DNA from: Patescibacteria group bacterium
GTDB taxonomy: Bacteria; Patescibacteriota; Patescibacteriia; JAXHNJ01
Length of the DNA: 64,000 nt
Assembly: GCA_034520665.1 (NCBI GenBank)
Contig: JAXHNJ010000001.1
Coordinates: 258,579-322,578 of the forward strand
Reading direction: 5' to 3'
The position numbers and the translations under genes were made by a program. Under the pieces are notes generated by a model that searched no databases, was not told where the DNA came from, and worked only from the letters and a program-made list of their open reading frames with translations. Positions 10,833 to 41,610 of the stretch are shown piece by piece; the first letter of the stretch is position 1, and each line of letters begins with the position of its first letter.

Positions 10833-11172
10833 TGACGGCGACCCCCACAACTCTCGCCAGCCCTTCGGGACGTTGCACTAAATTTTTGCCCTTCGGGACA
10901 TATAACAAGGGATATGAGGTTACGAAGTTTTGCAGACTTCTTTACTCAAATTCGCCTACGGCGAACTTCTCATAAGCCCGATGTTAAATGAAATTTTGCC
11001 TTGAAATGTGAAGTGAAAAATATTCGTGCTATTAAAAAAAGATAGTTCGTAATTTCAAAATTTATTTTATTTATCGGCAAAACTTCACTTAACACTGTGT
11101 ATCTGGTTCCGTAAAAGAGAAAAATTAAATAATTCTCTATTTTTAAAAGCCTTTTTTCAATTTTTTTACAAA

Positions 11173-11200
11173 GAAAAAACCAGTTGTTAGGGACAACTGG
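11173..11200 (-). terminator. Rho-independent terminator for the minus-strand gene 11217..11591
   Basis: Minus strand reads CCAGTTGTCCCTAACAACTGG followed by a T-run: an 8-bp stem plus TTTTTTT. Confidence 0.55.
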
Positions 11201-11216
11201 AAAACCCTTATTTTGT

Positions 11217-11591
11217 TTAGAGGACTGCGTAGTACGGCATTCCGCCAGGCAGGGCTGACCACATGGCACGCGGCATAAGGCATTTGGCCTTGCCGATCGC
11301 GGTGCCGAGTTGAAAGAGCTGGTCCATGCGTTGGTGCAGATCTGTCCACTGATTGCCATGCTTGTCGTTACAGGCATTCAAAAAGGACGTGCCGCCACCA
11401 CCGGACATCTTGAACTCGTCGGGTAATTCATCCAGTATTTCCTCAATCTCGGCCTTATGGCTTTCCAGTCTGTCGGTATGAAAACCAACATTCTGGGTTA
11501 TACCCTCGGCTTTGACATAATTGTTGGTTTCCTCATCTTCTTTGAACAGACAGTCTATGAAGATTGCATTTACGCGTTCGGGATCAATCAT
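11217..11591 (-). CDS. hypothetical protein (124 aa), compositionally foreign (higher GC), minus strand
   Basis: ORF has its own terminator and sits inside a split boundary repeat. GC about 47%. No motif recognised. Confidence 0.45.
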   Translation of the reverse strand: MIDPERVNAIFIDCLFKEDEETNNYVKAEGITQNVGFHTDRLESHKAEIEEILDELPDEFKMSGGGGTSFLNACNDKHGNQWTDLHQRMDQLFQLGTAIGKAKCLMPRAMWSALPGGMPYYAVL

Positions 11592-12589: not shown

Positions 12590-15337
12590 ATGAGTGAAGA
12601 ATTACTACAAAGAGGACTAACTAAAAAAGGAATTACATTCATAGATTATGAATTTTTTCCGTTACACTCAACGACCTTAAAACAATATAAAAAGTTAAAA
12701 ATAATTCCTAATAAAGATTATGATAAATATGAAATTAGAAAACCTGACGGGCTTTTAGTAGACAGAGGAAATAAATCAAAGCCGAAAGTTGTTACAGTTT
12801 TGGAATACAAAAAACCTTCTGAATTTCAAACAGATAAACAAAAAAGAGAAGCGATTGAACAATGCAATGATTTGTGTCAAGAGCTTGAAGCAAAAATAGG
12901 AATTATTACAGACGGAATTGTTACTTATTGGATAAATCCAAACCACGCAGATAAAAATAACAAATACAAAGATAGAACAACTGGGAAGAAGCGAAGTTTT
13001 TCTTATATCTTAAATGATGATAAGCAAAGATTACAAAAGAAGTTTTTCATTAAAGAGAACGATAAAAAAGATATTTCAAAATTGAATAATGAAACAAGAG
13101 AAACTTACAGATTAGTTAAAAGAATTTTAGAAGAAACAAATAATAAAAATTCTGTTTTGAAAGCAACAGAAAAAACAGACCCAACCCCTCTCGCGAGAAG
13201 TGTTTGGCAAAGTATTTACATAAGCACAAAAGATAATCCAACAGCTTGTCTTTATAATGTTGTTGAGATTTTTATCTTTAAGTTTCTGAGTGATTTAGGA
13301 GTTTTAAAAGGAGTTAATAGTTTTGATTATTTATTGAAACTTTACAAAACAGAAGATAGTAAAACAGTTTTAAAACACTATGCTAAAACTTGCAGAGAAG
13401 AAATAAGAAATTTATTTGAAGCGGGAGATGACGGGACAACAATAATTAATGGAACTATTTTTGTAAATAAAGACGGAAGCCCTGTTTTATCACAAGCGAC
13501 TTTATTTAAAGACACTATTGAAAAATATGCAAAGTTTGGAGATTTAAAAAATATTGACAAGGGATTTAAAACAAAATTGTTCGAAACATTTTTGAAGCAG
13601 AGTAAGGACAAAAGTAAGTTAGGACAATTTTTTACACCGAGAAAAGTTGTTAAGGGAATTGTTGAAATGGCTGATGTGGATAAAGCGGAATTTATATGCG
13701 ACCCATTTTGCGGTGTTGGTGGTTTTCTTTTAGAGCCATTTCAAATATCTCAAAATTTGAAAAATAAATTTATTCCAAAGAATAATGAAATAAATCCGCC
13801 TGTAAAACTTTTAGGATATGATACAGGAAGAGAAGATAACGACGAACAAAAGAGGACTATTATTTTAGCAAAGGCGAATATGCTTATTTATTTGTCTGAT
13901 TTAGTCGAAAAAAATTCTACATTAAACGAGGAATTTTCAAAAATAATAAATAATACTTTCCACTTTTTATCGGATAGTAATCTTGGAACACTAAAAGAAA
14001 CTGAAAGATTTGAAAGAAATGAGGATAAGCCTGATTTAATTATTACCAATCCTCCATATATCACAAGCGGAGTAACTACAATAAGAAAACAGATTGAGGA
14101 AGATGGTTTAACTGATTATTATAAAAATAGTGGAAAGGGAATGGAAGGTTTATGCTTAAAATGGATAATAAAAAATTTGAAAAGAAAAGGACAAGCATTT
14201 ATTGTTTTGCCAGATAGTATTTTTAATGTTTTTGCCAATAAAGTTTTAAGAGATGAAATAAAAAAGAATTGTTATATTAATTGTATTATATCTTTACCCG
14301 CAAAAACTTTCTTTAATACTCCAAAGAAAACTTATGTTTTAGGAATTACAAAAAAAGATTGTGATGAAGATGAATGTGAAAATCTTAAACAGGATTTTCC
14401 TGTATTCACTTATTTAGTTTCTAATATCGGGGAAACATTAGATATTAACCGATTCGAAATTCCTGAAAATGATTTGGATAATGCGAAGAATTTGTTTAAT
14501 CAATTTAAAGGAAGTCCAAATAATTTTCAAACAGATGACTCACGATGTAAATTACAACCTATTGAAAAATTTGAAAATGAGAAATATTGGATAATTGATA
14601 AATGGTGGAGTAAAAAAGAAAAAATAGAAATTGAAATTGAAGAAGAAGATGAAAGTTTAACTATTGATGAATTTAAAGATCAAATTGAAAAAACAAAGGA
14701 AAAATTAGGAGAATTAGAATGGGTGGCAGATAAAACAAAAGAGAGAAAATATAAAACCAAAATGATGTATGTAACGGATGATAAGATAAATAAAAATAGG
14801 AAAGAAGAAGGAATTTTTGAAGCAGAAAAAGGAAATGCAAAATACACAAAAAAATATATGCACGACCATAAAGGTGAGTTTCCTGTTTATTCTTCTCAAA
14901 CTTCTAATTTAGGCGAGATAGGAAGCATAGACACCTATGATTATGAAGAAGAATGTTTTACTTGGACAACCGATGGAACTTATGTTGGAACTGTTTTTTA
15001 TAGAAATGGTAAGTTTTCAATAACCACTCATTGCGGAATTTTAAGAGTTAAACCAGAATACAAAGATAAAGTTGATTTTGAATATTTGAATTTTATCTTA
15101 AATCAAACACTCCCTAATTATAAATTAGGTGAAGGTTCTAATAAAAGATTAGGGACTGAAAGAATGAAGGAAATTCAAATAGAAATCCCAATAAACAAAA
15201 ACGGAGAATTTGACTTAGATAAACAAAAAGAAATTGCTGAAAAGTATAAGAAAATAGAAGAAATCAAGGAAAAACTTAAAGACAATTATGAAAAGATGAT
15301 AAATTCAAAAGTTCAGATTATTGAAGCAGAAGAATAA
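12590..15337 (+). CDS. Type IIG (MmeI-like) single-chain restriction-modification enzyme: N-terminal PD-(D/E)xK nuclease, gamma-class N6-adenine methyltransferase, C-terminal target-recognition region
   Basis: N-terminal KPDGLLVD...VLEYKK matches PD...ExK. Methyltransferase motif I FFTPRKVV...DPFCGVGGFL. Motif IV ITNPPY. The 915-aa length matches MmeI architecture. Confidence 0.7.
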   Translation: MSEELLQRGLTKKGITFIDYEFFPLHSTTLKQYKKLKIIPNKDYDKYEIRKPDGLLVDRGNKSKPKVVTVLEYKKPSEFQTDKQKREAIEQCNDLCQELEAKIGIITDGIVTYWINPNHADKNNKYKDRTTGKKRSFSYILNDDKQRLQKKFFIKENDKKDISKLNNETRETYRLVKRILEETNNKNSVLKATEKTDPTPLARSVWQSIYISTKDNPTACLYNVVEIFIFKFLSDLGVLKGVNSFDYLLKLYKTEDSKTVLKHYAKTCREEIRNLFEAGDDGTTIINGTIFVNKDGSPVLSQATLFKDTIEKYAKFGDLKNIDKGFKTKLFETFLKQSKDKSKLGQFFTPRKVVKGIVEMADVDKAEFICDPFCGVGGFLLEPFQISQNLKNKFIPKNNEINPPVKLLGYDTGREDNDEQKRTIILAKANMLIYLSDLVEKNSTLNEEFSKIINNTFHFLSDSNLGTLKETERFERNEDKPDLIITNPPYITSGVTTIRKQIEEDGLTDYYKNSGKGMEGLCLKWIIKNLKRKGQAFIVLPDSIFNVFANKVLRDEIKKNCYINCIISLPAKTFFNTPKKTYVLGITKKDCDEDECENLKQDFPVFTYLVSNIGETLDINRFEIPENDLDNAKNLFNQFKGSPNNFQTDDSRCKLQPIEKFENEKYWIIDKWWSKKEKIEIEIEEEDESLTIDEFKDQIEKTKEKLGELEWVADKTKERKYKTKMMYVTDDKINKNRKEEGIFEAEKGNAKYTKKYMHDHKGEFPVYSSQTSNLGEIGSIDTYDYEEECFTWTTDGTYVGTVFYRNGKFSITTHCGILRVKPEYKDKVDFEYLNFILNQTLPNYKLGEGSNKRLGTERMKEIQIEIPINKNGEFDLDKQKEIAEKYKKIEEIKEKLKDNYEKMINSKVQIIEAEE

Positions 15338-21421: not shown

Positions 21422-22018
21422 ATGGCTAAATTAATGAATTGGCCTTATTTTAGTCAAAAATTAGACCAAAAAAAGATAAAAATATTCTCTCCCTTTGATT
21501 TAAAACGGTTATTTGGCGTGTCTGAAACCTCAATCAGATTTTTTTTGCATCGCTACACAAAAAAAGGCTATATAAAAAAATTAAAAAGGGGTTTGTATTG
21601 TTTGTCTAATCAACCGCCTAATGATTATTACTTAGCTAATAAACTATATGAACCTTCTTATATTTCTTTTGAGCAGGCTTTAAGCTATTATCATATAATA
21701 CCAGAAACTGTTTATACCATTACGTCAGCCACAAGTAAAGCAACAAGGGAATTTGAATGTTTAGGTAAAAGTTTTTATTATCATCGAGTAAAAAAATCAT
21801 TATTTTTTGGTTATAAACAGAAAATATTTTCTAACCAGATAATTTTAATGGCAAGAGCCGAAAAAGCTTTTGTGGACTATTTATATTTTGTTTCACTCAA
21901 AAAGAAAAAAATGCTGGATCGTTTTGACAAAAATAAAATTAATAAAGATAAAGTAATGAAGTTAGCTAGAGTTTATAAAAATAAAAAAATCAAAGAATTA
22001 ATTATTAAATATTTATGA
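21422..22018 (+). CDS. AbiEi-like antitoxin/transcriptional regulator (type IV toxin-antitoxin, COG5340-like)
   Basis: N-terminal winged-helix-like segment (FSPFDLKRLFGVSETSIRFFLHRYTKKGYIKKLKRGLY). Stop overlaps the start of the downstream nucleotidyltransferase (ATGA). Confidence 0.55.
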   Translation: MAKLMNWPYFSQKLDQKKIKIFSPFDLKRLFGVSETSIRFFLHRYTKKGYIKKLKRGLYCLSNQPPNDYYLANKLYEPSYISFEQALSYYHIIPETVYTITSATSKATREFECLGKSFYYHRVKKSLFFGYKQKIFSNQIILMARAEKAFVDYLYFVSLKKKKMLDRFDKNKINKDKVMKLARVYKNKKIKELIIKYL

Positions 22019-22743
22019 TAGATTATTCTAGTCTTCAGAATTTAGCCACCGAATACAAAACTACTAATCAAAATGCAGCTAGAGAATATTGCCAGCATAT
22101 TTTTTTGTCGAATCTTTATAAATTAAACTTAAGTGGGGTAGAGAATTTATTATTTAAAGGTGGCACAGCCTTGAAAATAGTCTATCAAAGTCCTAGATTT
22201 TCTGAAGATCTTGATTTCTCCTCATTTAGTTTGGATAAAAAAAATATTGAAGAAATATTTATTAATGTATTAGCGGAAATTGAGAAAAGCGGTTTTCAAA
22301 CAAAATTAACTGAAGCTAAAAAAACTAGCGGTGGATATTTAGGCAAGGCGTTTTTTTTATTTCTGGATTTTAATTTGGAAATAATGATTCAAGTACATTT
22401 TAAAAAGGAAGAAAAAATTAATGGTGATTTTCATCTAATTACCAGCGATTATTTACCAGCCTATAATTTATTAGTTTTACCCGAGAATATTTTGGTTAAT
22501 GAAAAAATAAAAGCAACCATTACACGCGGAAAACCCAGAGATTTTTATGACGTTTATTTTATCTTAAGAAAAAATTTATTAATTCCTGAAAATAAAGAAA
22601 ACCTTAAAAAGGTCTTGAACAGTTTAGAAAATTCCAAAATTAATTTTAAACAAGAATTAGGAATTTTTTTACCCAAGGATCAGCAGCAGATTATTGGTAA
22701 TTTTGAAAATGTTTTAAAAGCTGAAATAAAAAGACATTTGTAA
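22015..22743 (+). CDS. AbiEii/AbiGii family nucleotidyltransferase toxin (DUF1814)
   Basis: FKGGTALKIVYQSPRFSEDLDFS signature (GG[TS]AL ... RFSEDIDF). Confidence 0.7.
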   Translation: MIDYSSLQNLATEYKTTNQNAAREYCQHIFLSNLYKLNLSGVENLLFKGGTALKIVYQSPRFSEDLDFSSFSLDKKNIEEIFINVLAEIEKSGFQTKLTEAKKTSGGYLGKAFFLFLDFNLEIMIQVHFKKEEKINGDFHLITSDYLPAYNLLVLPENILVNEKIKATITRGKPRDFYDVYFILRKNLLIPENKENLKKVLNSLENSKINFKQELGIFLPKDQQQIIGNFENVLKAEIKRHL

Positions 22744-27660: not shown

Positions 27661-28005
27661 ATGTATCTAATTTTAAGATTAATTATCAATGCTTTAATTA
27701 TTTTGGGTATTGCTTACTATTTCCCTGGAATTAGTGTTAGCGGTTTTTATTCAGCTTTAATTATTGCTTTAGTTTTGGGTCTAGTTAATGCTTTAATTCG
27801 TCCGATTATTTTAGTCTTAACCCTGCCGGTTAATGTTTTGACCTTGGGTCTTTTTACTTTAATTATTAACGCTTTGCTTTTCTGGTTTGTCTCGACTATT
27901 GTTAAAGGCTTTGAAGTTGACGGTTTTGGCCCGGCTTTTTGGGGAGCGCTGGTCTTGAGTCTTGTTTCCTGGCTGACCAGCAGTTTTATTAAATCAATCA
28001 AATAG
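27661..28005 (+). CDS. Phage_holin_4_2 (DUF360) family membrane protein
   Basis: 114 aa with 4 TM. LIINALIILGIAYYFPGISVSGFYSALIIALVLGLVNALIRPII matches the family consensus as remembered. Confidence 0.6.
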   Translation: MYLILRLIINALIILGIAYYFPGISVSGFYSALIIALVLGLVNALIRPIILVLTLPVNVLTLGLFTLIINALLFWFVSTIVKGFEVDGFGPAFWGALVLSLVSWLTSSFIKSIK

Positions 28006-30249: not shown

Positions 30250-30861
30250 ATGGCGGAATTAACCAAAAAACAGCAAGATATACTAAATTACGTAGTCAAT
30301 TATATTCAAGACCATGAATACAGTCCTTCTTTTCAGGAAATTGGCCAGAATTTTGGCCTGTCTTCCAAAGCCACGGTTTCAGCCCATGTTCACGCCTTGA
30401 TAAAAAAAGGTTATTTAAGAAAGGTCAAGGGCTTAGCTCGGTCTTTAAACCTGACTAAAAAAGTTTATCAGCAGGGCCAGGCCGTGCAGCTGCCGCTTTT
30501 GGGCTTGATCGCCGCGGGTGAGCCAATTGAAGCTATTGAAGATAATGAAATGGTTTCTGTACCGGCCGGGGTGGTGCAGGACGCCAACTCTTATGTTTTA
30601 AAAGTAAAAGGGCAGTCCATGATTGAAGAAGGTATACTGGATGGTGATTATGTGGTAGTGGAAAGGAATTTTTATCCGCAAAACGGAGACGTGGTAGTGG
30701 CTTTGCTGGATAATGAATATGCCACCTTGAAAAAATATTTTCGTGAGAAAAACCGCATTCGCCTGCAGCCGGCTAATAAAACCATGAAACCAATTTTTGC
30801 CAAGAATCCGGCTATCCAGGGCATTGTCCGGGGCATTTACCGGGTCTTTTCTCATGCGTAA
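30250..30861 (+). CDS. lexA: LexA repressor (S24 peptidase)
   Basis: N-terminal winged helix-turn-helix. Cleavage-site region AAGEPIEA. Catalytic Ser within GQSM, and Lys further downstream. Confidence 0.85.
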   Translation: MAELTKKQQDILNYVVNYIQDHEYSPSFQEIGQNFGLSSKATVSAHVHALIKKGYLRKVKGLARSLNLTKKVYQQGQAVQLPLLGLIAAGEPIEAIEDNEMVSVPAGVVQDANSYVLKVKGQSMIEEGILDGDYVVVERNFYPQNGDVVVALLDNEYATLKKYFREKNRIRLQPANKTMKPIFAKNPAIQGIVRGIYRVFSHA

Positions 30862-30919
30862 AGGAAATATAAAGGAAACAGGAAGTGGCAAGACTGAAAA
30901 GTATTATTAATAATCTTTC

Positions 30920-31851
30920 ATGAAAAAATATAATCTTAAGAACCAAGTTCATTTCATCACTATTAATACATATAAAAAATACTGGCTTTTTAAGAAAGAA
31001 AATCTTTGCCAAATAGTAATTGATAATCTAAATTTTTACCGCCGTAAATTTAGTTTTAAATTATTGGGTTACGTAATTATGCCTAATCATCTACATTTAT
31101 TAATCCAATTAAATAAAAAATATAATGATATTTCAAAGGTAATGAGGGATTTTAAGAAATTTACAAGTGTTCAAATTATAAAGCAGTTAATAAAAGAAAA
31201 TGAAAAAGATTTACTTAAGAAATTTTCTATGACTGGAAAAATTTTTAATTATCCCTCTACTCTGGGTACTGCCCGATCCTCAGATCGGGCCGGCTTTCCA
31301 GCTGAAGGCCGAATCTGAGGATTCGGCCTACCCGACTAGTTTTAGAAAGAAGAGAAAATATTCAGTCTGGATGAATGATTTTTACGACTTTAACATCTAT
31401 TCCGAGAATCTTCTACTCTGGGTACTGCCCGATCCTCAGATCGGGCCGGCTTTCCAGCCGAATCTGAGGATTCGGCTTACCCGACTAGTTTTAGAAGGAA
31501 GAGAAAATATTCAGTCTGGATGAATGATTTTTACGATTTTAATATCTATTCCGAGAATTTTCTACTCTGGGTACTGCCCGATCCTCAGATCGGGCTAGTC
31601 TCTCGGCCGAATCTGAGGATTCGGACTACCCGACTAGTTTTAGAAAGAAAAGAAAATATTCAGTCTGGATGAATAATTTTTACGACTTTAATATCTATTC
31701 CGAGAATAAACTAGAGCAAAAACTTAATTATATTCATAATAATCCAGTCAAAGCCAAGATAGTTAAAAAACCTGAGGATTATAAATGGTCTTCTTACAGA
31801 AATTATTATTTGGATGATGATTCAATAATAGAAATTAATCAGTTATTTTAA
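30920..31851 (+). pseudogene. Disrupted IS200/IS605-type (REP-associated) tyrosine transposase gene, interrupted by three tandem 149-156-bp repeats that each carry a GC-rich double hairpin
   Basis: N-terminal part 30920..31318 has the HuH motif (MPNHLHLLIQ). C-terminal part 31669..31851 has the catalytic Tyr region (VWMNDFYDFNIY...YIHNNPVKAKIV...DYKWSSY). The 149-bp repeat is not a multiple of 3, so the frame is broken. Confidence 0.6.
31254..31707 (+). repeat. Three tandem copies (156, 149, 149 bp) of a unit made of a GC-rich palindromic element plus about 75 bp of transposase coding sequence
   Basis: Each unit has the hairpins GCCCGATCCTCAGATCGGGC and CCGAATCTGAGGATTCGG. A fourth partial copy sits at 31928-32143. 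Confidence 0.8.
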
Positions 31852-32160
31852 ATAATTTAAATTCTTAAAATATGGTATTACTAAATATTATTTCTGGGTA
31901 GGCGAAAGCCCTCGCTTTTGCCATACTTTGATGCTTAAAACATTTTCTATGACTGGCAAAATTTTTAATTATCTCTCTACTCTGGGTACTGCCCGATCCT
32001 CAGATTGGGCCGGCTTTCCAGCCGAATCTGAGGATTCGGCCTACCCGACTAGTTTTAGAAAGAAAAGAAAATATTCAGTCTGGATGAATGATTTTTACGA
32101 TTTTAATATCTATTCCGAGCATAAATTTAATAATAGAAATTAATAGACTATAAAAAAAAC

Positions 32161-32409
32161 ATGCACGAAAAAATTAACGAGCCAATAAAAGTTCTAGCTT
32201 CTTTTTTAAAAGGGCAGGTTAGTCCGCTTTCTTTTGTTTGGCAGGGCCGGCGCTATAATCCGACTAAAATTAATTTGGTTCATTCAGAGAGAAAAGGTAA
32301 AGGAAAAATTTATTATTTTTCGGTTTCCGATAATTCTAATTTTTACCGGCTGGCTTTTAATAATGAAAATCTTAACTGGCGCTTGATGGAAATATATTCG
32401 CAAAATTAA
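32161..32409 (+). CDS. hypothetical protein (82 aa)
   Basis: ORF only. Confidence 0.3.
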   Translation: MHEKINEPIKVLASFLKGQVSPLSFVWQGRRYNPTKINLVHSERKGKGKIYYFSVSDNSNFYRLAFNNENLNWRLMEIYSQN

Positions 32410-32420
32410 ATTTTTTAGAT

Positions 32421-32610
32421 AAAAAAAGACCCGGACAACAAACAGGTCTCATAATAATGAAAAGATTTGTCGTCCGGGTTCCCCACATCAAGAAAGAGAA
32501 AATATGAGGGGCAAATTTCCCGTGCCCAGCAGTTTATAGCTCGGCGAACGCCGGCTAAACACGGACGAAAATTCGCCCCCTAGCTCTCTTTCAATAAAAA
32601 TTATTTTAAA
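32421..32610 (-). ncRNA. candidate structured small RNA (about 180 nt) on the minus strand, with its own terminator
   Basis: Minus-strand Rho-independent terminator: 13-bp stem CCCGGACGACAAA/TTTGTTGTCCGGG followed by TCTTTTTTT. Upstream segment has nested long-range pairing (GAGGGGCAAATTTCC with GAAAATTCGCCCCC, and CCGTG with CACGG). A rc-TTGACA sits at about 32645. No ORF. Confidence 0.3.
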
Positions 32611-32880
32611 AAGGGCAAAGTAATTTTATACAAAATAATAATTTTGTCAAGTATTTTTTGGCTACCAAGCTTATTTTTGGCTAATATTAGTTTATTAATA
32701 TCTAAATTCTAAACAAATTTTAAATTACAATATTTTAAACTATAAATTATTTTGATTTTTCGAGAATAGAACCAAATACTTTCATAAGTTTTGTAGATTC
32801 GTTGATTAGTATATTTTTTTTCTCCCACTTGTTGATTTATAGGATTAGTTAACCTTTTTATTATCAACAAAAAGATATCT

Positions 32881-33183
32881 CAAAAATTATCTTACACATT
32901 GATATGAATAGCTATTTTGCTTCTTGTGAACAGCCCCGCACCACTTCTCTTCGGCGCTCAGAGTTGGATGCGGGACGAAGTTTAATTAATTTTATATTTT
33001 TATGACTTCGATTATCTTACATATTGACATGAACAGCTATTTTGCTTCCTGTGAGCAGCCCCGCACCAATTCCTCGTTTTACTCGGAACGATGCGGGACG
33101 AAGTTTAATTAATTTTATATTTTCATGACTTCGATTATCTTACACATTGATATGAACAGCTATTTTGCTTCTTGTGAACAGCA
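32881..33183 (+). repeat. Three tandem 122-bp repeats. Each holds the first ~55 nt of the dinB coding sequence plus an upstream GC-rich hairpin; the third copy is the functional gene start
   Basis: ATGACTTCGATTATCTTACA(C/T)ATTGA(T/C)ATGAACAGCTATTTTGCTTC recurs at 32886, 33003 and 33125. Hairpins CCCGCACC...GATGCGGG lie between copies. 122 is not a multiple of 3; the decoy ATG at 33003 opens a 38-codon frame. Confidence 0.8.
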
Positions 33184-34330
33184 AGCTAATCCTTTTTTAC
33201 GGGGTAGACCGGTCGGAGTTTGCGCTTATTTGTCAGAGCAGGGTTGTATTATTGCTTCGTCCATTGAAGCTAAAAAAAAAGGAGTGAAAACTGGCTGTCG
33301 CGTCAAGGAAGCCAAGCAGCTTTGTCCAGATATTTTTTTAATGGAAAACGAGCCGGCTAAATACCGCAGTATTACTAAAAAAATTTTCTCTATTCTAGCC
33401 GAATATACCGATAAACTAGAGCCTTACAGTATTGACGAGGCTTTTTTAGATCTCACTGGTTGGTCTAAAAACTTTAAACAAGCTAAAGAAAAAGCTAAAG
33501 AAATTAAAGATCGAATAAAGAACGAAGTCGGGGACTGGCTCAAAGCCTCGGTCGGTCTTTCTTACACCCGCTGGCTGGCCAAATTTGCTTCAGACCAGGC
33601 CGATAAAGATAGTATTTTAATAATAAAGAAAGATAATTTAGATAAATTTTTAAAAAGACCCTTAACCAGTGCTTGGGGTATTAATTACCGACTGGAGAGT
33701 AGACTAAAATCTTTGGGTATTTTTAATTTGCTCGATTTAAAAAAATATCCAGTAGCTAATCTAATGCAAGTTCTGGGTCGGCCTGGCTATTATCTCTGGG
33801 CTAATGTTAACGGTCTACCGACAGAAAAAGTAAAAAAACAAAAAGAGCCTAAATCAGTCGGTCATAGCTATTGTTTATACCAAAAATCAAAGGATATCGA
33901 TTATTTATCTTCAGTTTTGCTCAAGCTTTGCGAAAAAACCGGCCGCCGCCTGCGGCTTTTGGAAAAAGAGGCTCACTCAATCAGCTTTGGCTTAAGATTT
34001 AAAAACGGCGGCGGCCTTCATCAGGTAAAGAGAATTAAAAATGGTCTTTTTACCACCAAAAGTATTTTTCGAACTGCTTTAAAGATTATGTCAAAAATTC
34101 ATCTTTATGAAGAAGTTTCTTTTCTAGCCATATCAGTTTCGCACCTGTGGTCAATCAGCCGGCAAATGTCTCTTTTTAAAGATAATCTTAAAGAAAAAGA
34201 GATAAGCTTGGCTATGGACAAAATTAATGATCAATACGGCCAGTACTTGGTTTACTGGGGGAGTATGCACGGCACTGATAAAGTGGCCCGCGACCGCATT
34301 GGCTTTCGTAAAACTGTTAATACAAATTAA
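33125..34330 (+). CDS. dinB: DNA polymerase IV (Y-family, translesion synthesis)
   Basis: N-terminal ILHIDMNSYFASCEQ. Catalytic DE (SIDEAFLDLT). Length and organisation match DinB. Confidence 0.9.
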   Translation: MTSIILHIDMNSYFASCEQQANPFLRGRPVGVCAYLSEQGCIIASSIEAKKKGVKTGCRVKEAKQLCPDIFLMENEPAKYRSITKKIFSILAEYTDKLEPYSIDEAFLDLTGWSKNFKQAKEKAKEIKDRIKNEVGDWLKASVGLSYTRWLAKFASDQADKDSILIIKKDNLDKFLKRPLTSAWGINYRLESRLKSLGIFNLLDLKKYPVANLMQVLGRPGYYLWANVNGLPTEKVKKQKEPKSVGHSYCLYQKSKDIDYLSSVLLKLCEKTGRRLRLLEKEAHSISFGLRFKNGGGLHQVKRIKNGLFTTKSIFRTALKIMSKIHLYEEVSFLAISVSHLWSISRQMSLFKDNLKEKEISLAMDKINDQYGQYLVYWGSMHGTDKVARDRIGFRKTVNTN

Positions 34331-34432
34331 GAAGCGGGTAAACTTTAAATTAAAAAACTATCAAATAGGACATTTCTAAATAATTCAAAGTAGGACATTT
34401 CTAGCTCACCTTTACATGAGTATTATTTTTTC

Positions 34433-34460
34433 TTGACAAAAAACAAGGGAGTGATATAAT
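34433..34460 (+). promoter_or_regulatory. near-consensus sigma70-type promoter (TTGACA, 16 nt, TATAAT)
   Basis: cTTGACAaaaaacaagggagtgaTATAATtaag. The transcript would cover four GCCGTCGG-type repeats (34476, 34492, 34572, 34590), a 29-codon ORF and a terminator before ssb. Confidence 0.5.
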
Positions 34461-34637
34461 TAAGTGGTAATCAAGCCGTCGGTAACACAATAGCCGTCGG
34501 ATAAAAATAAAAAGAAAAATCAAAACATAAAAATTTGTCCATTAAAATCGGAGGAAAGAGAAAATTAGCTTAGCGCCGTCGGAATTAAGCGCCGTCGTGA
34601 TAAAGTGTGGATAAATTTACTTATTATTAAAAATATT

Positions 34638-34727
34638 ATGAATAACTTAAAAAAATTTATTATTTATATAATCACTGGTCTTATTAAAGACATTATATTT
34701 ATTAACCAAACACCTCTTAATTTATAA
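34638..34727 (+). CDS. possible 29-aa hydrophobic leader/small peptide (MNNLKKFIIYIITGLIKDIIFINQTPLNL)
   Basis: ATG ORF whose 3' end overlaps the left arm of a terminator hairpin, just upstream of ssb. Confidence 0.2.
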   Translation: MNNLKKFIIYIITGLIKDIIFINQTPLNL

Positions 34728-34747
34728 AAGAGGTGTTTTTGTTTTTT
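34709..34747 (+). terminator. Rho-independent terminator / attenuator hairpin upstream of ssb
   Basis: ACACCTCTT-aatttataa-AAGAGGTGT followed by TTTTGTTTTTT. Confidence 0.5.
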
Positions 34748-34784
34748 AAAACAAAGTTGGTGGCTTAGCAAAAAGGAAAAAAAT

Positions 34785-35183
34785 ATGGATGTAAACAAAG
34801 TAACCTTGCTGGGTAATCTAACCAAAGATCCCGGCGCCAAGAAACTTTCATCTGGTCAAACAATTTCATTTTTTGACCTGGCCACTAACTATTCCTGGAA
34901 AGACGTTAAAACTAAGCAGAAAAAGGATTCTGTGGAGTATCATCATGTCTTAGCCTGGGGTAAACTAGCTGAAATTATTAAAAAGTATCTGAAAAAAGGC
35001 TCTCGAGTCTATTTAGAAGGCCGTTTGCAGCATAAGTCCTGGAAAGACAAAAAAGGTAATTTTCAAAACAAGACTAATGTGGTGACTGATAACCTGATTA
35101 TGCTCGGTCATAACGGCAAGAAAGGAGCTGAAATGACTAAAGAAGACATTGATGTTGATGAAATAAAAGTGGATGAAGATTAA
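34785..35183 (+). CDS. ssb: single-stranded DNA-binding protein
   Basis: OB-fold pattern VNKVTLLGNLTKDP ... HHVLAWGKLAE ... GSRVYLEGRLQHKSW, and an acidic C-terminal tail DIDVDEIKVDED. Confidence 0.8.
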   Translation: MDVNKVTLLGNLTKDPGAKKLSSGQTISFFDLATNYSWKDVKTKQKKDSVEYHHVLAWGKLAEIIKKYLKKGSRVYLEGRLQHKSWKDKKGNFQNKTNVVTDNLIMLGHNGKKGAEMTKEDIDVDEIKVDED

Positions 35184-35729: not shown

Positions 35730-36239
35730 ATGACTAAAATACTATACGAACCCAAAAAAGACTTAAAAAATTGGCTAAGAATAAAAGATAAATATCCAGA
35801 AAGTTTTACAATTACAAAGCATTATCCTTTTGATAAAGATATTATTTTAAAAAAAGAAAATTTTAGGAAAATTTTATCTTCCATTAGCAAAACTAAAACA
35901 AAGTACTTTAATATTCAGGCAAAAATAATAAAAAAAACTTGGCAGACTAGAGAAGATAAAATTATTAATAAAATTACTGATTATTTAAGTTTTCCTTTTA
36001 GTAAAATTGATTTTAAAGCTAATTTAACCACAGCTTATTTAATGCCTTATGATTATAAAGATAAATGGTTTATGATTCCCACTCACAAAGGCATTGAAGA
36101 TCAGATTCTATGTTTAATTCACGAACTTTTTCATTTATATCAGGTTAAAAAAAATCCAAATATGAACGAGGTAAAAAAAGAAAAAGAAGTAAAAGATTTT
36201 TTAAAAAATATTAGAAAAAGTGATCATTTCAAAAAATAA
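35730..36239 (+). CDS. hypothetical protein (169 aa)
   Basis: ORF; contains HELFH. Confidence 0.3.
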   Translation: MTKILYEPKKDLKNWLRIKDKYPESFTITKHYPFDKDIILKKENFRKILSSISKTKTKYFNIQAKIIKKTWQTREDKIINKITDYLSFPFSKIDFKANLTTAYLMPYDYKDKWFMIPTHKGIEDQILCLIHELFHLYQVKKNPNMNEVKKEKEVKDFLKNIRKSDHFKK

Positions 36240-36624
36240 AAAAGAGGAAAGTGGCTATACAATCCTCAGCCTTTACGGCTCCACAATTCCTCAGGGGTTA
36301 TGAGCCCCTACTATTCGAGTTTTTCTCCTTATAGGAATTGTTTTAGGTGGTTAAAAATACCTATTGGGTGAGTTAGAAAGCTGTCTGCACCTTTCTAATC
36401 TAACAAAGATTTATAAGCCACTTTCCATCTGGTTGTTCAAAGTGCCATTATTAATTTATATTTTTTGACTTATGTTGTCAAGTATAATTGAGGAGGTGAT
36501 ATCTTTGAACAAAAAAGACTATCTTATATTGATAGTCAATAAATTTCCTAGCTTGGGTAAGTATCTGTCTATTTACCCAAGCCAAATCATGAACCTTAGC
36601 TCTTTGAAAAGGAGGTGAAAAAAG

Positions 36625-37194
36625 ATGAGACGCTTTATTTCACTTCTCATGGTTGGCTTGTTGTCATTTACTATGATGGCTAGTATCAGTTGCGAGCGGA
36701 GCGAGACGTCGGTGGAGGCGAAGTCAGATAAAGAGAGAAAAAAAGTTTCCATCCACTATGTAGGTAATGAAAGCCATGAAGATGTTTTAGCCAGTATTAG
36801 GAAAACAGAAAAATTGACTGGACATACTTTTTCCGATGAACAAAAAACTAAAATGCTGCAAGATTTCAGAGATTTTCAGTCAAAAAATAATCCTCAATCT
36901 TCTAAGCTTGCTACCAGTGTTATTACAGCCTACACTTGTTATTATGTCTATAATGGAGATAAAGATCTCAAACTTGAATTCAAGTGGTGGGCCGGACATC
37001 CTCGTTCTTATTACTTTACTACACCGAACTGGACTCTTTACTGGCTAATTAAAGTCTGTTATGGAGGAAATATTTTGAGCTGGACTTGGATGGAAGGTGG
37101 ATACCAGAGAGTATCAGCTATTGTTGGGTCTTGCGTCTATCTTCCTTTAGGTTCTTCTTTTGTCCGTTCTTATCTATGGCTTGTTTATTATTAG
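36625..37194 (+). CDS. secreted/lipoprotein paralog A (Trp/Tyr/Cys-rich C-terminal domain)
   Basis: Signal peptide MRRFISLLMVGLL with Cys at about 22 (SISC). The upstream 85 bp (hairpin, GGAGGTG) is identical to that of the gene at 37574. Confidence 0.45.
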   Translation: MRRFISLLMVGLLSFTMMASISCERSETSVEAKSDKERKKVSIHYVGNESHEDVLASIRKTEKLTGHTFSDEQKTKMLQDFRDFQSKNNPQSSKLATSVITAYTCYYVYNGDKDLKLEFKWWAGHPRSYYFTTPNWTLYWLIKVCYGGNILSWTWMEGGYQRVSAIVGSCVYLPLGSSFVRSYLWLVYY

Positions 37195-37260
37195 CCTTTG
37201 TGTTAGGTAGCTTCTACTTTTACAAAAGTCAGGAGCTACCTAAATTATAATTACTCTATT

Positions 37261-37485
37261 ATGTATATTATCAATATATCTCTTAAAAAATTTATAATAA
37301 TAATTGGATCGTACATTCTTATTGGTATAATATTAAGTTTTATTTTTAAAGATGATCAGGCCAATAATTATTTTGATTTGTTAATTAACCAATTGCCATC
37401 AAGTTTACCAACTCTTTTAGTATATTTATTAGCTCGCTTTTTATACATATTATTTTGGCCAATAGGTATTTTGAGTTTTATATAA
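37261..37485 (+). CDS. small two-TM membrane protein (74 aa)
   Basis: Hydrophobic ORF immediately downstream of paralog A. Confidence 0.35.
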   Translation: MYIINISLKKFIIIIGSYILIGIILSFIFKDDQANNYFDLLINQLPSSLPTLLVYLLARFLYILFWPIGILSFI

Positions 37486-37573
37486 AGAATAAATCCGCGG
37501 TTTGGGTAATTTTCTGTCTATTTACCCAAGCCAAATCATGAACCTTAGCTCTTTGAAAAGGAGGTGAAAAAAG

Positions 37574-38185
37574 ATGAGACGCTTTATTTCACTTCTCATG
37601 GTTGGCTTGTTAGTTTTTATAACTACGGCCAGTGTAAGTTGTGATCGGACGGAAACTCCAGTGAAGGCAAAAAATGATAAGACTGATATTTATCAGGACG
37701 AAGATTTTGTCTCACAGCTTGAAGAAATTCAGCTCTACATGAGTTGGGTGGATAAAGTAGAGCCTTATGTTACGCGCCATCAGGATATGACTTATTCAGT
37801 GGATTGGTCCGGATTTTACACCAGTATTAATAAAAATAACCTGACTAGTCAGGATAAAAAAATACTGGAAGATCTTGAAAAATCTGTGCCTATTGCCAAT
37901 GAAAATATTCTGAATAGCAGTAATAAAGCCCTGCCAAATTCTACGCAGTCTATTTACGAAGTTTGGTACTGGTGGGGTAAAAAGCTCTGCTTTACTGGTG
38001 ATGATGCTGTTTACTGGAGTACTGGCTTTGCTAATGCCGGCTGGGTTATTAATAAACTCGGTGTGCCTGGTGTAGTATTAGGCGCTTATATTGGCTGGGC
38101 CCAAATATTAACCTACCAGTGTGGTGGTTTTTGTCTGGTTAGTTCTTGGCTTTATCCGGCTGCTGTCTGGGTTTATTGCCCGTAA
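37574..38185 (+). CDS. secreted/lipoprotein paralog B (Trp/Gly/Cys-rich C-terminal domain)
   Basis: Same leader and signal peptide as 36625. The mature region has diverged. Confidence 0.45.
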   Translation: MRRFISLLMVGLLVFITTASVSCDRTETPVKAKNDKTDIYQDEDFVSQLEEIQLYMSWVDKVEPYVTRHQDMTYSVDWSGFYTSINKNNLTSQDKKILEDLEKSVPIANENILNSSNKALPNSTQSIYEVWYWWGKKLCFTGDDAVYWSTGFANAGWVINKLGVPGVVLGAYIGWAQILTYQCGGFCLVSSWLYPAAVWVYCP

Positions 38186-38264
38186 AACAACACGGGGGGA
38201 GAAAAAGAAAATTATTTTTCTTCCCCCAATTTTTTAAAATTTATTATTTAGATATAATAAAATT

Positions 38265-38741
38265 ATGGATTATAAAATAATTTCTCTTATTAGCTTTCTA
38301 TTTATTGCCTTAGCTTCAATTTTTTATGGTTTCTATAAAATTAAAAAGGAAAAAGTTTTAAAGAAACCAGTTTTAGCCTTTTTATATTTAATACAAATTA
38401 TAATTTTTGTTGTTTTTATCTATATAGTGACTAAGAGGTATTTGGGTGGCTCGAATTTAACTAATAATAATTTTTTCTTTAAATTTGGACCTTTATTAAT
38501 AATTATTCCAGCCGGGCTTTTTGATTTATACAAAGCTTTTAGCAAGAGTAAAAAAATATTTTATTGGCATCTGTTGGCTTATTTAGTCCTATTAGTTTTT
38601 ATGTCACTGCTTTATTTAAACTTTAATTTAGCTATCTGGCAGGTACAGGTGATGTTTTGTATTACTTTAGTTTTAATTGTTTTTGTGGCTTATAAAGCTA
38701 ATAAGGCTGAACAAGAACACAAAAAAAAGTCAAGAAAATAA
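38265..38741 (+). CDS. polytopic membrane protein (158 aa, about 5 TM)
   Basis: Hydrophobic ORF downstream of paralog B. Confidence 0.4.
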   Translation: MDYKIISLISFLFIALASIFYGFYKIKKEKVLKKPVLAFLYLIQIIIFVVFIYIVTKRYLGGSNLTNNNFFFKFGPLLIIIPAGLFDLYKAFSKSKKIFYWHLLAYLVLLVFMSLLYLNFNLAIWQVQVMFCITLVLIVFVAYKANKAEQEHKKKSRK

Positions 38742-38781
38742 ATAAATTGTTCTTTTAACTTCCAAAAAAAGGAGGTCGCCT

Positions 38782-38829
38782 ATGAAACAAAATAGGTTTG
38801 TCTGGACCACGTTAGTCGTGGCCAATTAA
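38782..38829 (+). CDS. 15-codon leader peptide ORF (MKQNRFVWTTLVVAN), followed at 38834-38898 by a 17-bp-stem hairpin
   Basis: Strong SD GGAGGTCGCC. A paralogous leader MKQNRLTRAMINMAD lies at 40488-40535. The large hairpin TTCGGTATTAAGTACAG/CTGTACTTAGTTACCGAA is conserved in both copies. Confidence 0.35.
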   Translation: MKQNRFVWTTLVVAN

Positions 38830-38935
38830 TTCGTTTCGGTATTAAGTACAGCTCATCTTAAGTTTTTACATCTGTCTGCCTGTACTTAGTTACCGAAAAA
38901 CTTGTTTGTTCTTTGAAAGAAAGAAGGTAACAAAA

Positions 38936-39697
38936 ATGTTAGGCAAGATTTCGGTTTTTACGGTATTAATTCTTTTTGCCAGTTTCTTTTTCCTGCCTGC
39001 CTGCGATACCTTTGATGGGGATTCCGAGAATCCAGTGGGGGTAAATGAGGAAGAAGGTTCTTCTGAAAATCCAAAACCAGAAACCCTGGATTTTCCGGCA
39101 AGCCAATGGAATGAAAATGTAACTCATTCTGATGGTGACTCCATTACTGTTGAAGGGTCAAAAATGGCTGAGCAAAGAAAAATGCTTACTGGAGTCGGCC
39201 AGTATAATTCTTTTCCTTGGAGTTGGCACCTGCCTTTCAGAGGTTGTTGGTATATGACCTGTGGTTATGGTTGTGGCTATCACCAAGGTAATGATTATTA
39301 TTCAACAGATTGGGCTGTAGGAGGAAATCCTTGCGGCTATGAAGTTCTGGCTCCCGGGGCTGGTTGGGTGCTTTGGGCTGGATATAAATCCGGTTATGGA
39401 TATACGGTTTTAATTGAAGCTGGTCCAACAGGCCAGAGTAACGGAAATCGTTATATCTATCGTGTAGCCCACTTGAGTCGCATTGAAGTAGTGCCTGGCT
39501 GGTGGCTTCCCCGAGGATGGAGAATTGGAAGACATGGAAATACTGGAAATTCTACAAATTGTCATATTCATTGGACTGTTTATCGCGGACGTTATGCTGG
39601 GTATGGCAATGTTTATGGGTCCAGTTTTCCGCCCAGTTGGAGTTCAGGAGTTGATGGCTTTAATGGAAATTATGGAAGGTGGTGTTCAAAACAGTAG
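38936..39697 (+). CDS. M23 family metallopeptidase lipoprotein (LytM/lysostaphin-like peptidoglycan hydrolase)
   Basis: Lipobox LPAC. HxxxD motif (YHQGNDY). HxH motif in GNTGNSTNCHIHWTV. Confidence 0.7.
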   Translation: MLGKISVFTVLILFASFFFLPACDTFDGDSENPVGVNEEEGSSENPKPETLDFPASQWNENVTHSDGDSITVEGSKMAEQRKMLTGVGQYNSFPWSWHLPFRGCWYMTCGYGCGYHQGNDYYSTDWAVGGNPCGYEVLAPGAGWVLWAGYKSGYGYTVLIEAGPTGQSNGNRYIYRVAHLSRIEVVPGWWLPRGWRIGRHGNTGNSTNCHIHWTVYRGRYAGYGNVYGSSFPPSWSSGVDGFNGNYGRWCSKQ

Positions 39698-39788
39698 AGG
39701 ACATTTTTGGGTGGAAAGAATACTTAATAAGTATTCTTTCCACCCTTTCTATTTTTTTTAATTAATTAATAAATTATATATAAATCCT

Positions 39789-40448
39789 ATGAAAAAAACA
39801 TCTATTATCTATCTAATTATTATTTTATTAGTAGCCACTATTTTTGGATACTTATTTTTTATTCGAAGTAAAACTAGTGTAAATGATGACAAAATTATTA
39901 TTACGAATAAATCAAATAATAATAATATTAATAAAGTTTTAACAAATCAAAATACATATTTTAATAAAAAACTTGGTTTTAGGGTAGCGCTTCCGAGCTC
40001 TATAAATTTTTGGCAAGAGCAAGAAGGAACTCTTTCTCATCGAAATACTCAAAAAGAAGACCGAGTTACATTTTTATTAAATAATACATCCGGGGATGAT
40101 TATTTTCTTGAGGATCCTTTTTGGGTTGTAGTTCATGTATTAAATTCTCAAGATAAAAATGCTGTTCAATGGGCTGAGTCTGGTATTGATGCTCCGAGAA
40201 TATTAGAAGGATATGGTGAGCTTTCAAAAATTGTTGAAAGTAAAACTATTAAAATAAATAGTATAGAATGTATTGAACAAATTGAAAAAAGCGGAGAAGA
40301 AGCAACTACTTCCGCCTATCAGAAAATAATTTATTGCGTTAATAATAGCAGAATTTATGTAATTGAGGGTTATTCAAAATCAAAAGATGATTTTATGCTT
40401 TATAATGAAATATTTGCTAAATTTGTAGAAAATTTTGAATTTATATAA
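39789..40448 (+). CDS. hypothetical secreted protein (signal anchor)
   Basis: N-terminal TM; no motif recognised. Confidence 0.35.
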   Translation: MKKTSIIYLIIILLVATIFGYLFFIRSKTSVNDDKIIITNKSNNNNINKVLTNQNTYFNKKLGFRVALPSSINFWQEQEGTLSHRNTQKEDRVTFLLNNTSGDDYFLEDPFWVVVHVLNSQDKNAVQWAESGIDAPRILEGYGELSKIVESKTIKINSIECIEQIEKSGEEATTSAYQKIIYCVNNSRIYVIEGYSKSKDDFMLYNEIFAKFVENFEFI

Positions 40449-40641
40449 ATATATGATTCTTCGGATATTATAAAAAGGAGGTGGCCTATGAAACAAAATA
40501 GGTTAACACGAGCCATGATAAACATGGCCGATTAATTCATTTCGGTATTAAGTACAGCTCATCTTAAGTTTTTACATCTGTCTGCCTGTATTTAGTTACC
40601 GAAAAACTTGTTTGTTCTTTGAAAGAAAGAAGGTAACTAAA

Positions 40642-40824
40642 ATGTTAGGCAAGATTTCGGTTTTTACGGTATTAATTCTTTTTGCCAGTTTCTTTTTCCT
40701 GCCTGCCTGCGATACCTTTGATGGCGATTCGGAGAATCCGGTGGGGGTGACTTCACAGGACACGGAGATTTCCCATCAAGACGATCCTGGAATCAGTGAT
40801 TCTGGGGAAGAGACGGGAGAATAA
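40642..40824 (+). CDS. truncated paralog of the M23 lipoprotein: same signal peptide and lipobox, then a short acidic tail
   Basis: First about 45 aa identical to 38936..; shares the upstream leader-peptide/hairpin module. Confidence 0.4.
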   Translation: MLGKISVFTVLILFASFFFLPACDTFDGDSENPVGVTSQDTEISHQDDPGISDSGEETGE

Positions 40825-40860
40825 GAAGTTCTTATCTCCCTCAATTTTTTTACTAAAATT

Positions 40861-41610
40861 ATGCCTTATCCCCATCTTAAATTTCGTAAGAATGCTAAAA
40901 AAGATTTTGAGAGTCTTTGTCTTTTTGTGGATGAAGCGAAATATAGTGAGGGTAGAAACTTAAACTGGGCTGTATTTGAAAAATATCCTCACTTAAAAAA
41001 ATATTTTAATATAAATAAAGACTATAAAATAAAGAATCAGAAAATGTTGCAAAATTTTATTAAACAGAATTATCAAAGTAGAGGCAAGGGTATGGATAAA
41101 GCTTTGAAAAAACATAAAAGAAACTGGCAAAAAGTAGCCCCTAATTTTTTCTTTTTGGTTGATGAGATTTTTAAAAAACGCGAATGGCCTCAAGGAAAAT
41201 ATATTGCTTATGGTACCATCTGGCATCTCTATCCTCGTTATTTAGAAGATAAAACTTTCCAAATTCCTTTTTGGCATTCTAAAGCTAAATATATCTTAGT
41301 AGTAATAGCTCATGAATTGTTGCATTTTATGTTTTATGATTATTTTTATAAGAGGTTAGCAAAATATCATTCTCGTCGATATAATTTTTTTGTTTGGCAT
41401 ATTTCTGAAGTTTTTAATAATCTAATACAAAATTCATCAGCCTGGCTGAATTGTTTTAAAATGAGGTCGCTAATTTATCCCCAGCACAAGAAAATCGTAA
41501 ACCATATTAAGTCTACTTTAGACAAAAAAAGTGAATGGAATCTTGATGATTTGGTAGATCTAATTATTAAGGAAGTAAAAAAAGAATTTAATAAAAAAAA
41601 CATAAATTAG
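40861..41610 (+). CDS. hypothetical protein with HExxH motif (possible zinc metallopeptidase)
   Basis: VIAHELLHFMFYD. Confidence 0.3.
   Translation: MPYPHLKFRKNAKKDFESLCLFVDEAKYSEGRNLNWAVFEKYPHLKKYFNINKDYKIKNQKMLQNFIKQNYQSRGKGMDKALKKHKRNWQKVAPNFFFLVDEIFKKREWPQGKYIAYGTIWHLYPRYLEDKTFQIPFWHSKAKYILVVIAHELLHFMFYDYFYKRLAKYHSRRYNFFVWHISEVFNNLIQNSSAWLNCFKMRSLIYPQHKKIVNHIKSTLDKKSEWNLDDLVDLIIKEVKKEFNKKNIN

Follow-up and report, generated by a model that had tools for sequence, protein, structure and literature searches.

In the SitA/SitI systems (PMC5562445, PMC8546572) a lipobox signal and a conserved N-terminal part are joined to unrelated C-terminal toxin domains, and an immunity gene follows downstream. 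Judged by their architecture, these lipoprotein toxins of Myxococcus are the closest known analogue (PMC5562445) of the locus described here, a strain-variable lipoprotein island of about 6 kb (~35.7-41.6 kb) within a Patescibacteria chromosome. By the window we mean the whole 64-kb stretch of contig JAXHNJ010000001.1 that was analysed, in which the GC content is low (~33%) and almost every gene lies on the + strand. A sequence-only reading of the window had pointed to two genes of the island, here called A and B, as paralogous secreted proteins behind a common leader and signal peptide, each followed by a small membrane protein in a bacteriocin/immunity-like layout. According to our sequence and profile comparisons, A and B are not diverged duplicates: they belong to two separate families that share a putative regulatory and export module, made of a structured 5′ leader and a lipoprotein signal peptide, and the cargo carried behind this module differs between strains.

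The leader is a conserved structured element of 90-170 nt, absent from Rfam, and its four copies in the window all lie within the island, spanning 36.48-40.65 kb (Table 1). The full copies have one architecture, in which a Shine-Dalgarno (SD)-like GGAGGTG and an ATG are followed by the helix P1, a TTAATTC linker, the hairpin P2 with ATCTGTCT at its tip and a terminal hairpin beside the real SD sequence. Precisely, in copy 1 the SD-like GGAGGTG lies at ~36492-36498, P1 at 36517-36537 and P2, with ATCTGTCT at the tip, at 36551-36582; P3 is formed by CTCTTT (36600-36605) and AAGGAG (36609-36614), which covers the ribosome-binding site, and in an outer helix the ATG pairs with an upstream TCAT. 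Copy 2 begins directly after the stop codon of the gene for the 74-aa membrane protein that follows A, and copy 3 retains ATCTGTCT between P2 arms that are wholly different. In the predicted folds of copies 1 and 2 the CUCUUU pairs with the AAGGAG of the SD sequence and the outer helix pairs the AUG, and this modelled 3′ pairing has the geometry of a translation-off switch. The fold z-scores of the leader copies lie between -1.9 and -5.1.

Nine full and three partial copies of the leader were collected from the window and from the contigs L001, L002, L003, L004 and L006. L001 and L002 are metagenomic contigs syntenic with the window (dinB, ssb, small open reading frame (ORF), zincin-like gene, 74-aa gene, leader, B), and L003 is a diverged Patescibacteria metagenome-assembled genome (GCA_043812155.1). 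Outside the window the leader homologues precede A-like genes (L003, L004), a B-like gene (L006), an M23 lipoprotein (L003) and, in L001, both a Peptidase_C39_2-like lipoprotein and a 250-aa lipoprotein. Across the copies P1 is kept with five different sequences, and P2 occurs as GGGTAA/TTACCC, GGGCAA/TTGCC and GGGTGA/TTACC, besides an unrelated 15-bp stem in the peptidase leaders. When RNAalifold was run on a MAFFT alignment, P1 and P3 were found again, and in 3 pairs both sides had changed; the nine full copies are a small sample, and across them the leader helices are maintained by compensatory substitutions. In Rfam 15 (4227 families) nothing matched the 64-kb window at the gathering threshold, and nothing matched the leader in 36300-41000 even at E values of up to 5. 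Upstream of distant family members in L007, L008 and L020 there are leaders that share the 5′ motif (GGAG..GCCTATGA / AAGGAGGCACA) but have diverged beyond the reach of nhmmer. We also considered a conserved leader peptide translated from the 5′ SD-like site and rejected it, the short ORFs varying in length and sequence between copies or running into the gene.

Genes A and B form a direct repeat with an offset of 949 nt, whose longest perfect run is 99 nt (36564-36662 = 37513-37611) and is far beyond chance. It comprises 61 nt 5′ of the ATG and 38 nt of coding sequence, hence the 13 identical first codons and residues (MRRFISLLMVGLL) that had been reported. The statement that the 85 bp upstream are identical went too far: 75/85 positions agree, 70/72 in the last 72 nt and 60/60 in the last 60, the similarity reaches back to ~36551, and 5′ of the hairpin the copy B sequence is the 3′ end of the 74-aa gene and not leader. 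The common hairpin (CTTGGGTAA...TTACCCAAG), which is P2, was indeed found in both copies (36551-36582 and 37500-37531); these differ at two mid-hairpin positions (36561, 36563) and at the first stem base, C versus T, giving a G-U pair. Past 36663 the identity falls sharply from 100% to ~65% and is gone by ~36731. The tract of identity has sharp edges, and the best reading of these sequences is that gene conversion within the genome has homogenised two homologous leaders. Beyond codon 13 the signal peptide of A (SFTMMAS) resembles those of P0004, P0006 and P0019 of the A family, and the signal peptide of B resembles that of the B orthologues.

Beyond the shared module the two proteins have nothing in common that could be aligned: only residues 1-36, corresponding to the signal peptide and ~13 mature residues, were aligned by BLASTP, and only residues 1-69 by hhalign of the two family profiles. 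When the signal peptides were removed, hhalign left the mature domains unmatched (probability 0.45%). Each family also has its own relatives elsewhere, and the proposed paralogy was therefore abandoned. An exhaustive HMMER search of 1.84 billion representatives gave 14 members of the A family, ~180-210 aa in length, among which P0004 and P0005 (~56% identity) lie on other Patescibacteria-type contigs and have their own signal peptides; for B four relatives are known (family n=5). Gene A itself is 100% identical to a hypothetical protein in the metagenome-assembled genome of a Patescibacteria group bacterium. The richness in W/Y/G/C of the two C-terminal parts was reproduced (34% in A and 37% in B, against 4-8% in the N-terminal parts), and this shared feature is compositional. 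A CHAP-like motif in the 756-aa neighbour of a distant A homologue (locus L021) was not confirmed by Pfam and was discarded.

Both proteins are probable lipoproteins, that is substrates of signal peptidase II and not released peptides, as judged from the following features of their sequences. The hydropathy scan showed an N-terminal signal segment only, and this reads MRR-FISLLMVGLLSFTMMA-SIS-C23 in A and ends in TTA-SVS-C23 in B. In the A family a Cys ends the hydrophobic signal segment in 13/14 of the aligned sequences that include the N-terminus, and the lipoboxes are mostly canonical L/V-x-G/A-C; in the B family the Cys is kept in 4/5 members, the fifth having IAPAC. A and B themselves have a non-canonical lipobox residue, Ser, at -3.

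No ordinary lipoprotein or substrate-binding family was matched by the mature domains in sequence or Foldseek searches. Precisely, searches of Pfam, NCBIfam, PADLOC and PHROGs gave only sub-threshold noise, with no significant match, for A, B and the 74-aa and 158-aa membrane proteins, and the sequence-profile searches of the PDB with A and B were empty. The AlphaFold2 model of A, obtained from a 15-sequence alignment, is a confident alpha/beta fold with a predicted local distance difference test score (pLDDT) of 86.9. The model of B (pLDDT 66) has a confident helical N-domain and, with lower confidence, a small C-terminal sheet, which is predicted to be Cys-stapled and to carry a hydrophobic helical hairpin flanked by the conserved motifs CFTG and GGFCL. 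Foldseek searches of the PDB with both models, and of BFVD with that of A, gave nothing at E below 0.03 or TM-score above 0.3. The bacteriocin-like layout of the sequence-only reading was borne out in one respect, a constant module with unrelated cargo, and failed in another, since A and B carry lipoprotein signal peptides and not bacteriocin leaders such as the double-glycine leader of class II; among the scanned ORFs of the window there was no dedicated ABC exporter either. A and B should not be filed under any known toxin or bacteriocin family.

The comparison of strains is what shows the module to be a junction. Between L001 and L002 the DNA of the flanks, leader and signal peptide is 97-100% identical, and that of the mature domain of B 67%; between the window and L002, whose contig ends at the B stop codon, the flanks are 79-89% identical and the mature domain of B 94%. 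Because a domain with 67% identity lies amid flanks of 97-100% in the first pair, and one with 94% amid flanks of 79-89% in the second, these alignments show that lineages have exchanged the cargo of B and that the 5′ junction of the exchange is the conserved leader and signal peptide. The L001 allele of B adds two small genes for transmembrane (TM) proteins (90 aa, 71 aa) without counterpart in the window. L001 and L002 lack gene A and its full leader; they retain the 74-aa gene, which starts there 12 nt past the zincin-like gene. Together with the unrelated cargo found behind the module (A, B, M23, C39-like, 250-aa), this exchange bears out the earlier claim of diversifying domains behind a constant module. 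The island thus has a constant 5′/N-terminal module with unrelated, strain-variable C-terminal domains, as polymorphic cassettes do.

The remaining two copies of the leader belong to a second type of cassette. Behind the second-type leader and signal peptide there are, in the window, the M23 peptidase and a 219-aa protein and, in L001, a C39_2 protein with a 197-aa protein and the 250-aa protein with a 164-aa protein; the TM-anchored 219-aa protein may be the partner of the M23 cassette. The truncated ORF behind leader copy 4 is homologous to the 5′ end of the 250-aa gene of L001 over ~145 nt and then diverges, and on this homology it is a remnant of a cassette after cargo loss. Positions 38766-39042 and 40472-40748 are a 277-nt repeat with 93% identity, covering the leader and the second-type lipoprotein signal peptide and linker (…CDTFDGDSENPVGV). 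Peptidase cargo (M23, C39_2) occurs only in these neighbouring or sister cassettes and not in A or B.

The small hydrophobic proteins downstream of A and B were found as described, one of 74 aa with two TM segments and one of 158 aa with ~4-5. Their co-conservation, which the sequence-only reading had proposed to test, holds for A and the 74-aa type in the window, L003 and L008, and for B and the 158-aa type in the window, L001 and L006. The 74-aa homologue of L003 has 76 aa (46% identity); in L008, where the A protein is only 38% identical, the gene caller overlooked the 74-aa-type ORF; the contigs of L004 and L020 end within such an ORF, of which they show only the beginning. The 158-aa homologues have 159 aa in L001 (72% identity) and 102 aa in L006 (38% identity, E = 1e-14). 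As in the window, a hairpin separates A from the 74-aa-type gene in L003, L004, L008 and L020, at the equivalent position and with a different sequence, and a TATAAT-like sequence comes after it.

Table 1. Features of the lipoprotein island; positions are those of the window.
Feature	Position	Strand	Remark
HExxH (zincin-like) protein, 169 aa, cytoplasmic	35730..36239	+	left edge of the island
Leader copy 1, full, upstream of A	36484..36624	+	nhmmer E = 3e-19; fold z = -3.8
Gene A, 189-aa probable lipoprotein (Cys23)	36625..37194	+	small unannotated family; predicted alpha/beta fold
Hairpin between A and the 74-aa gene, then TATAAT-like sequence	37206..37240	+	read directly from the sequence
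74-aa membrane protein, 2 TM	37261..37485	+	conserved downstream partner of A-family genes
Leader copy 2, 3′ part only, upstream of B	37490..37573	+	nhmmer E = 2e-11; P2 37500-37531, P3 37549-37563
Gene B, 203-aa probable lipoprotein (Cys23)	37574..38185	+	five-member family; mature part an exchangeable allele
Terminator-like hairpin and T-run after gene B	38194..38227	+	
158-aa polytopic membrane protein, ~4-5 TM	38265..38741	+	hydropathy scan
Leader copy 3, full, upstream of the M23 peptidase lipoprotein	38766..38935	+	nhmmer E = 5e-36
M23 peptidase lipoprotein	38936..39697	+	second-type conserved signal peptide and linker (MLGKISVFTV...CDTFDGDSENPVGV)
219-aa protein with N-terminal TM anchor, after the M23 gene	39789..40448	+	
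Leader copy 4, full, upstream of the truncated lipoprotein ORF	40472..40641	+	nhmmer E = 1.5e-32
Truncated lipoprotein ORF	40642..40824	+	signal peptide and linker only
HExxH (zincin-like) protein, 249 aa, cytoplasmic	40861..41610	+	right edge of the island; distant paralogue of the 169-aa protein

We favour, as an even call, the explanation that the island consists of co-regulated, recombining lipoprotein effector cassettes with membrane partners, the effector and immunity function being inferred. The cassettes are built from four copies of one structured 5′ leader, each placed before a lipoprotein signal peptide that is fused to unrelated cargo (A, B, M23 and the remnant). The conserved leader and signal peptide behave as the crossover anchor: the cargo of B has been replaced, A is present in some strains and absent in others, and the peptidase cassettes vary. 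The leader would be a cis-acting RNA whose 3′ hairpins occlude the SD sequence and the AUG, keeping translation off by default, until a trigger that recognises the conserved tip of P2 (AUCUGUCU) releases it; all the cassettes would be co-regulated through their common leader. The products may be lipid-anchored extracytoplasmic effectors of an epibiotic bacterium, directed against the cell envelope of a host or of a competitor, with the 74-aa protein (for A) and the 158-aa protein (for B) as putative protective or partner proteins. The broader bacteriocin- or polymorphic-toxin-like reading is a hypothesis that has come through the searches for ordinary families and the test of co-conservation, with the strain comparisons in its support. 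We offer only tentatively, as a rather unlikely extension, that the leader represents a class of cis-regulatory RNA not described before, which turns on a set of recombining surface lipoproteins in host-dependent Patescibacteria as a Sec/lipoprotein polymorphic effector system; A and B would be effectors with new folds that attack the envelope or insert into membranes, and their membrane neighbours would confer immunity, in conflicts between epibiont and host or between epibionts.

Several results weigh against these proposals. Between the window and L001 the 158-aa protein keeps 72% identity, a flank-like value, while B drops to ~40%, and because of this it does not appear to behave as an allele-specific immunity protein of B; the L001 allele of B, in fact, brings its two extra small TM genes, which the window lacks. 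The distant A-family loci L021 and L022 are without the 74-aa gene, and L021 adjoins a PEP-CTERM motif protein. No toxin, enzyme or pore-forming domain was recognisable in A or B by the library and fold searches, and the structural model of B is only moderately confident. The proposed RNA role of the leader is based on the sequences of about a dozen copies, drawn from five or six lineages. The search for other genes with the same leader, suggested by the sequence-only reading, brought two more copies in the window and copies in relatives, but the exact P2-pattern scans of genome and metagenome contigs gave no further true copies: in the genome contigs the pattern was found only in an already known contig, and its 10 matches in metagenome contigs lie inside unrelated sequence and are apparently due to chance.

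The main rival to the effector cassettes, which we consider a real but lesser possibility, is that the island encodes ordinary, non-antagonistic envelope lipoproteins (adhesins, receptors or wall-remodelling scaffolds), that the leader co-regulates envelope genes with the cell's own M23 hydrolase, and that allele replacement is driven by diversifying pressure from phage or host recognition and not by toxin/immunity dynamics. M23 peptidases are often housekeeping enzymes and allele exchange is also seen in surface proteins, both of which suit this rival, as do the lack of a detected toxin domain in A and B, the failure of the 158-aa partner to co-vary with the B allele and the position of the island in a conserved chromosomal neighbourhood. 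It accounts poorly, however, for an enzyme cargo that is not the same in close strains (the window has M23, L001 has C39_2 and the 250-aa protein), each time with a different TM-anchored neighbour, for the truncated cassette remnant, and for the loss of gene A with its membrane partner kept. Cargo differences, a remnant and a loss of this kind are what one would expect of dispensable, conflict-type cassettes and not of core envelope machinery.

The other explanations are less likely. It is improbable that the leader is primarily a DNA-level element, a recombination or mobility site at the cassette boundaries resembling an integron attC site or a miniature inverted-repeat transposable element, whose hairpins form in single-stranded DNA and whose effect on translation is incidental. 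The cassette boundaries do coincide with the leader, its hairpins have unpaired or bulged bases, and 5 kb upstream, as well as in L003, there is a gene for an IS200-type Y1 transposase, an enzyme type that acts on hairpin DNA. Yet every copy points the same way and stands directly before the start codon of a lipoprotein gene, the 3′ part of the element holds the SD sequence and pairs both with this and with the AUG, the 64 kb contain only four copies, all in the island, no integrase was present among the ORFs scanned, and ordinary homologous recombination at conserved sequences could account for the exchange. We consider it very improbable that one secreted-protein gene was duplicated in tandem and that the mature domains then diverged rapidly while the leader was conserved, a model already disfavoured: the identical leader and first 13 codons, the W/Y/G/C-rich C-termini and a short, non-significant common motif (W-x2-K-x-C-[YF]-x-G) would fit it, but the profile comparison of the mature domains was negative, the predicted architectures of A and B differ, their relatives elsewhere carry signal peptides and leaders of their own, and the abrupt drop at 36663 fits a conversion tract. 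Hardly credible at all is that a diversity-generating retroelement (DGR) acts on A and B, with the W/Y/G-rich C-termini as variable regions. DGRs are common in genomes of the candidate phyla radiation (CPR), and a bAvd-like gene (PF05635/PF22296) adjoins the A-like gene in L003; on the other side, no template-repeat-like copy of either C-terminal coding region exists in the 64-kb window, no reverse transcriptase was found among its scanned ORFs, and in the A family no part is better conserved than the C-terminus, whereas a variable region should behave in the opposite way.

The island is flanked on one side by the SOS genes lexA, dinB and ssb and on the other by an acyltransferase/histidine-kinase block; by family, LexA, Y1_Tnp, DinB and SSB stand opposite an acyltransferase/HAD and a GAF histidine kinase. 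The two HExxH proteins that bracket the island (169 aa and 249 aa) are 26% identical (E = 9e-4), and the left one is kept in L001 and L002. The order lexA, IS200-like Y1_Tnp, dinB, ssb upstream of the island (30250-35183) recurs in L003 (407-5402), where two 23S_rRNA_IVP/bAvd-like genes for four-helix bundles (5704-6105 and 11030-11443) are also located, one of them directly 5′ of the A-like leader. A LexA-box link, suggested by the adjoining lexA, dinB and ssb, was considered and dropped: no palindrome was seen common to the upstream regions of lexA and dinB and the leader.

A conserved non-coding element (34425-34620) lies between dinB and ssb. It contains GCCGTCG four times, a perfect DnaA-box-like TGTGGATAA and a TTGACA...TATAAT that resembles a promoter; it has no match in Rfam and could be a small RNA gene or a regulatory region. 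GCCGTCG is present 6 times in the window against ~1 expected, and elements related to this one sit directly 5′ of the B-like and A-like leaders in L007 (250-450) and L020 (1-175). Two tandem arrays were also observed, one (32886-33182, 123 nt x 2.4) copying the first ~55 nt of dinB and a GC-rich hairpin (CCCCGCACC...GATGCGGG), and the other (31256-31707, 149 nt x 3) overlapping or following the IS200-like Y1 transposase gene (30920-31318). Elsewhere in the window there are an ORF for a fused type I restriction-modification methylase and specificity protein (12590-15337), an AbiEi/AbiEii toxin-antitoxin pair (21422-22743) and a holin-family (Phage_holin_4_2) protein (27661-28005).

For CPR bacteria (Patescibacteria) the interaction, feeding and competition around host cells are largely unknown, and the surface proteins are mostly unannotated. 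In this respect the locus offers, in a conflict-like island, two small families without a sequence match in the libraries, of which A has a confident predicted fold that Foldseek left unmatched in the PDB and BFVD, and a compact leader outside Rfam that appears to co-regulate the A and B families with peptidoglycan peptidases. It also gives direct sequence evidence that strains exchange cargo by way of a conserved leader and signal peptide. If the products were indeed effectors with immunity proteins, the locus would represent a minimal polymorphic effector system that relies on lipoprotein export, in an organism whose genome is much reduced.

Compared with SitA/SitI, the island has in common the type II (lipobox) signal, the conserved N-terminal part, the unrelated C-terminal domains, an immediately downstream gene that is proposed to be protective, and several cassettes per genome that differ between strains. 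The C-terminal domains of SitA, however, are recognisable nucleases and tRNases acting in the cytoplasm, while A and B are without a recognisable toxin domain; the SitI proteins are soluble, of the SUKH type and similar, whereas the neighbours in the island are small polytopic membrane proteins; and delivery of SitA requires outer-membrane exchange (TraAB) in a diderm. No homology of SitA to A or B was found, in libraries that held no SitA profile, and the likeness is one of architecture only. To our knowledge, SitA cassettes do not share a structured RNA leader.

With polymorphic toxin systems in general the island shares a constant 5′ module with variable cargo, cargo replacement by recombination, a truncated remnant and, in its sister cassettes, peptidase-type cargo (M23, C39-like). 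It differs from them in that the constant part is a leader RNA with a signal peptide and a short linker and not a long delivery domain, that no type 5, type 6 or type 7 secretion apparatus is involved, and that the putative immunity gene of B does not co-vary with the allele. The class III bacteriolysins of the M23 family (lysostaphin, zoocin A) resemble the island in its secreted M23 peptidase, which stands behind the same type of leader; the likeness concerns this neighbouring cassette and not A or B, and the immunity known for these bacteriolysins is a cell-wall modification of the FemABX type, not seen in the island. As regards the leader, SD-sequestering leaders such as translational riboswitches and RNA thermometers differ from it, which matches none of the 4227 Rfam families and carries an additional 5′ SD-like sequence with an ATG, but they are alike in having several hairpins, a last hairpin that pairs with the SD sequence and the start codon, and compensatory changes in the helices.

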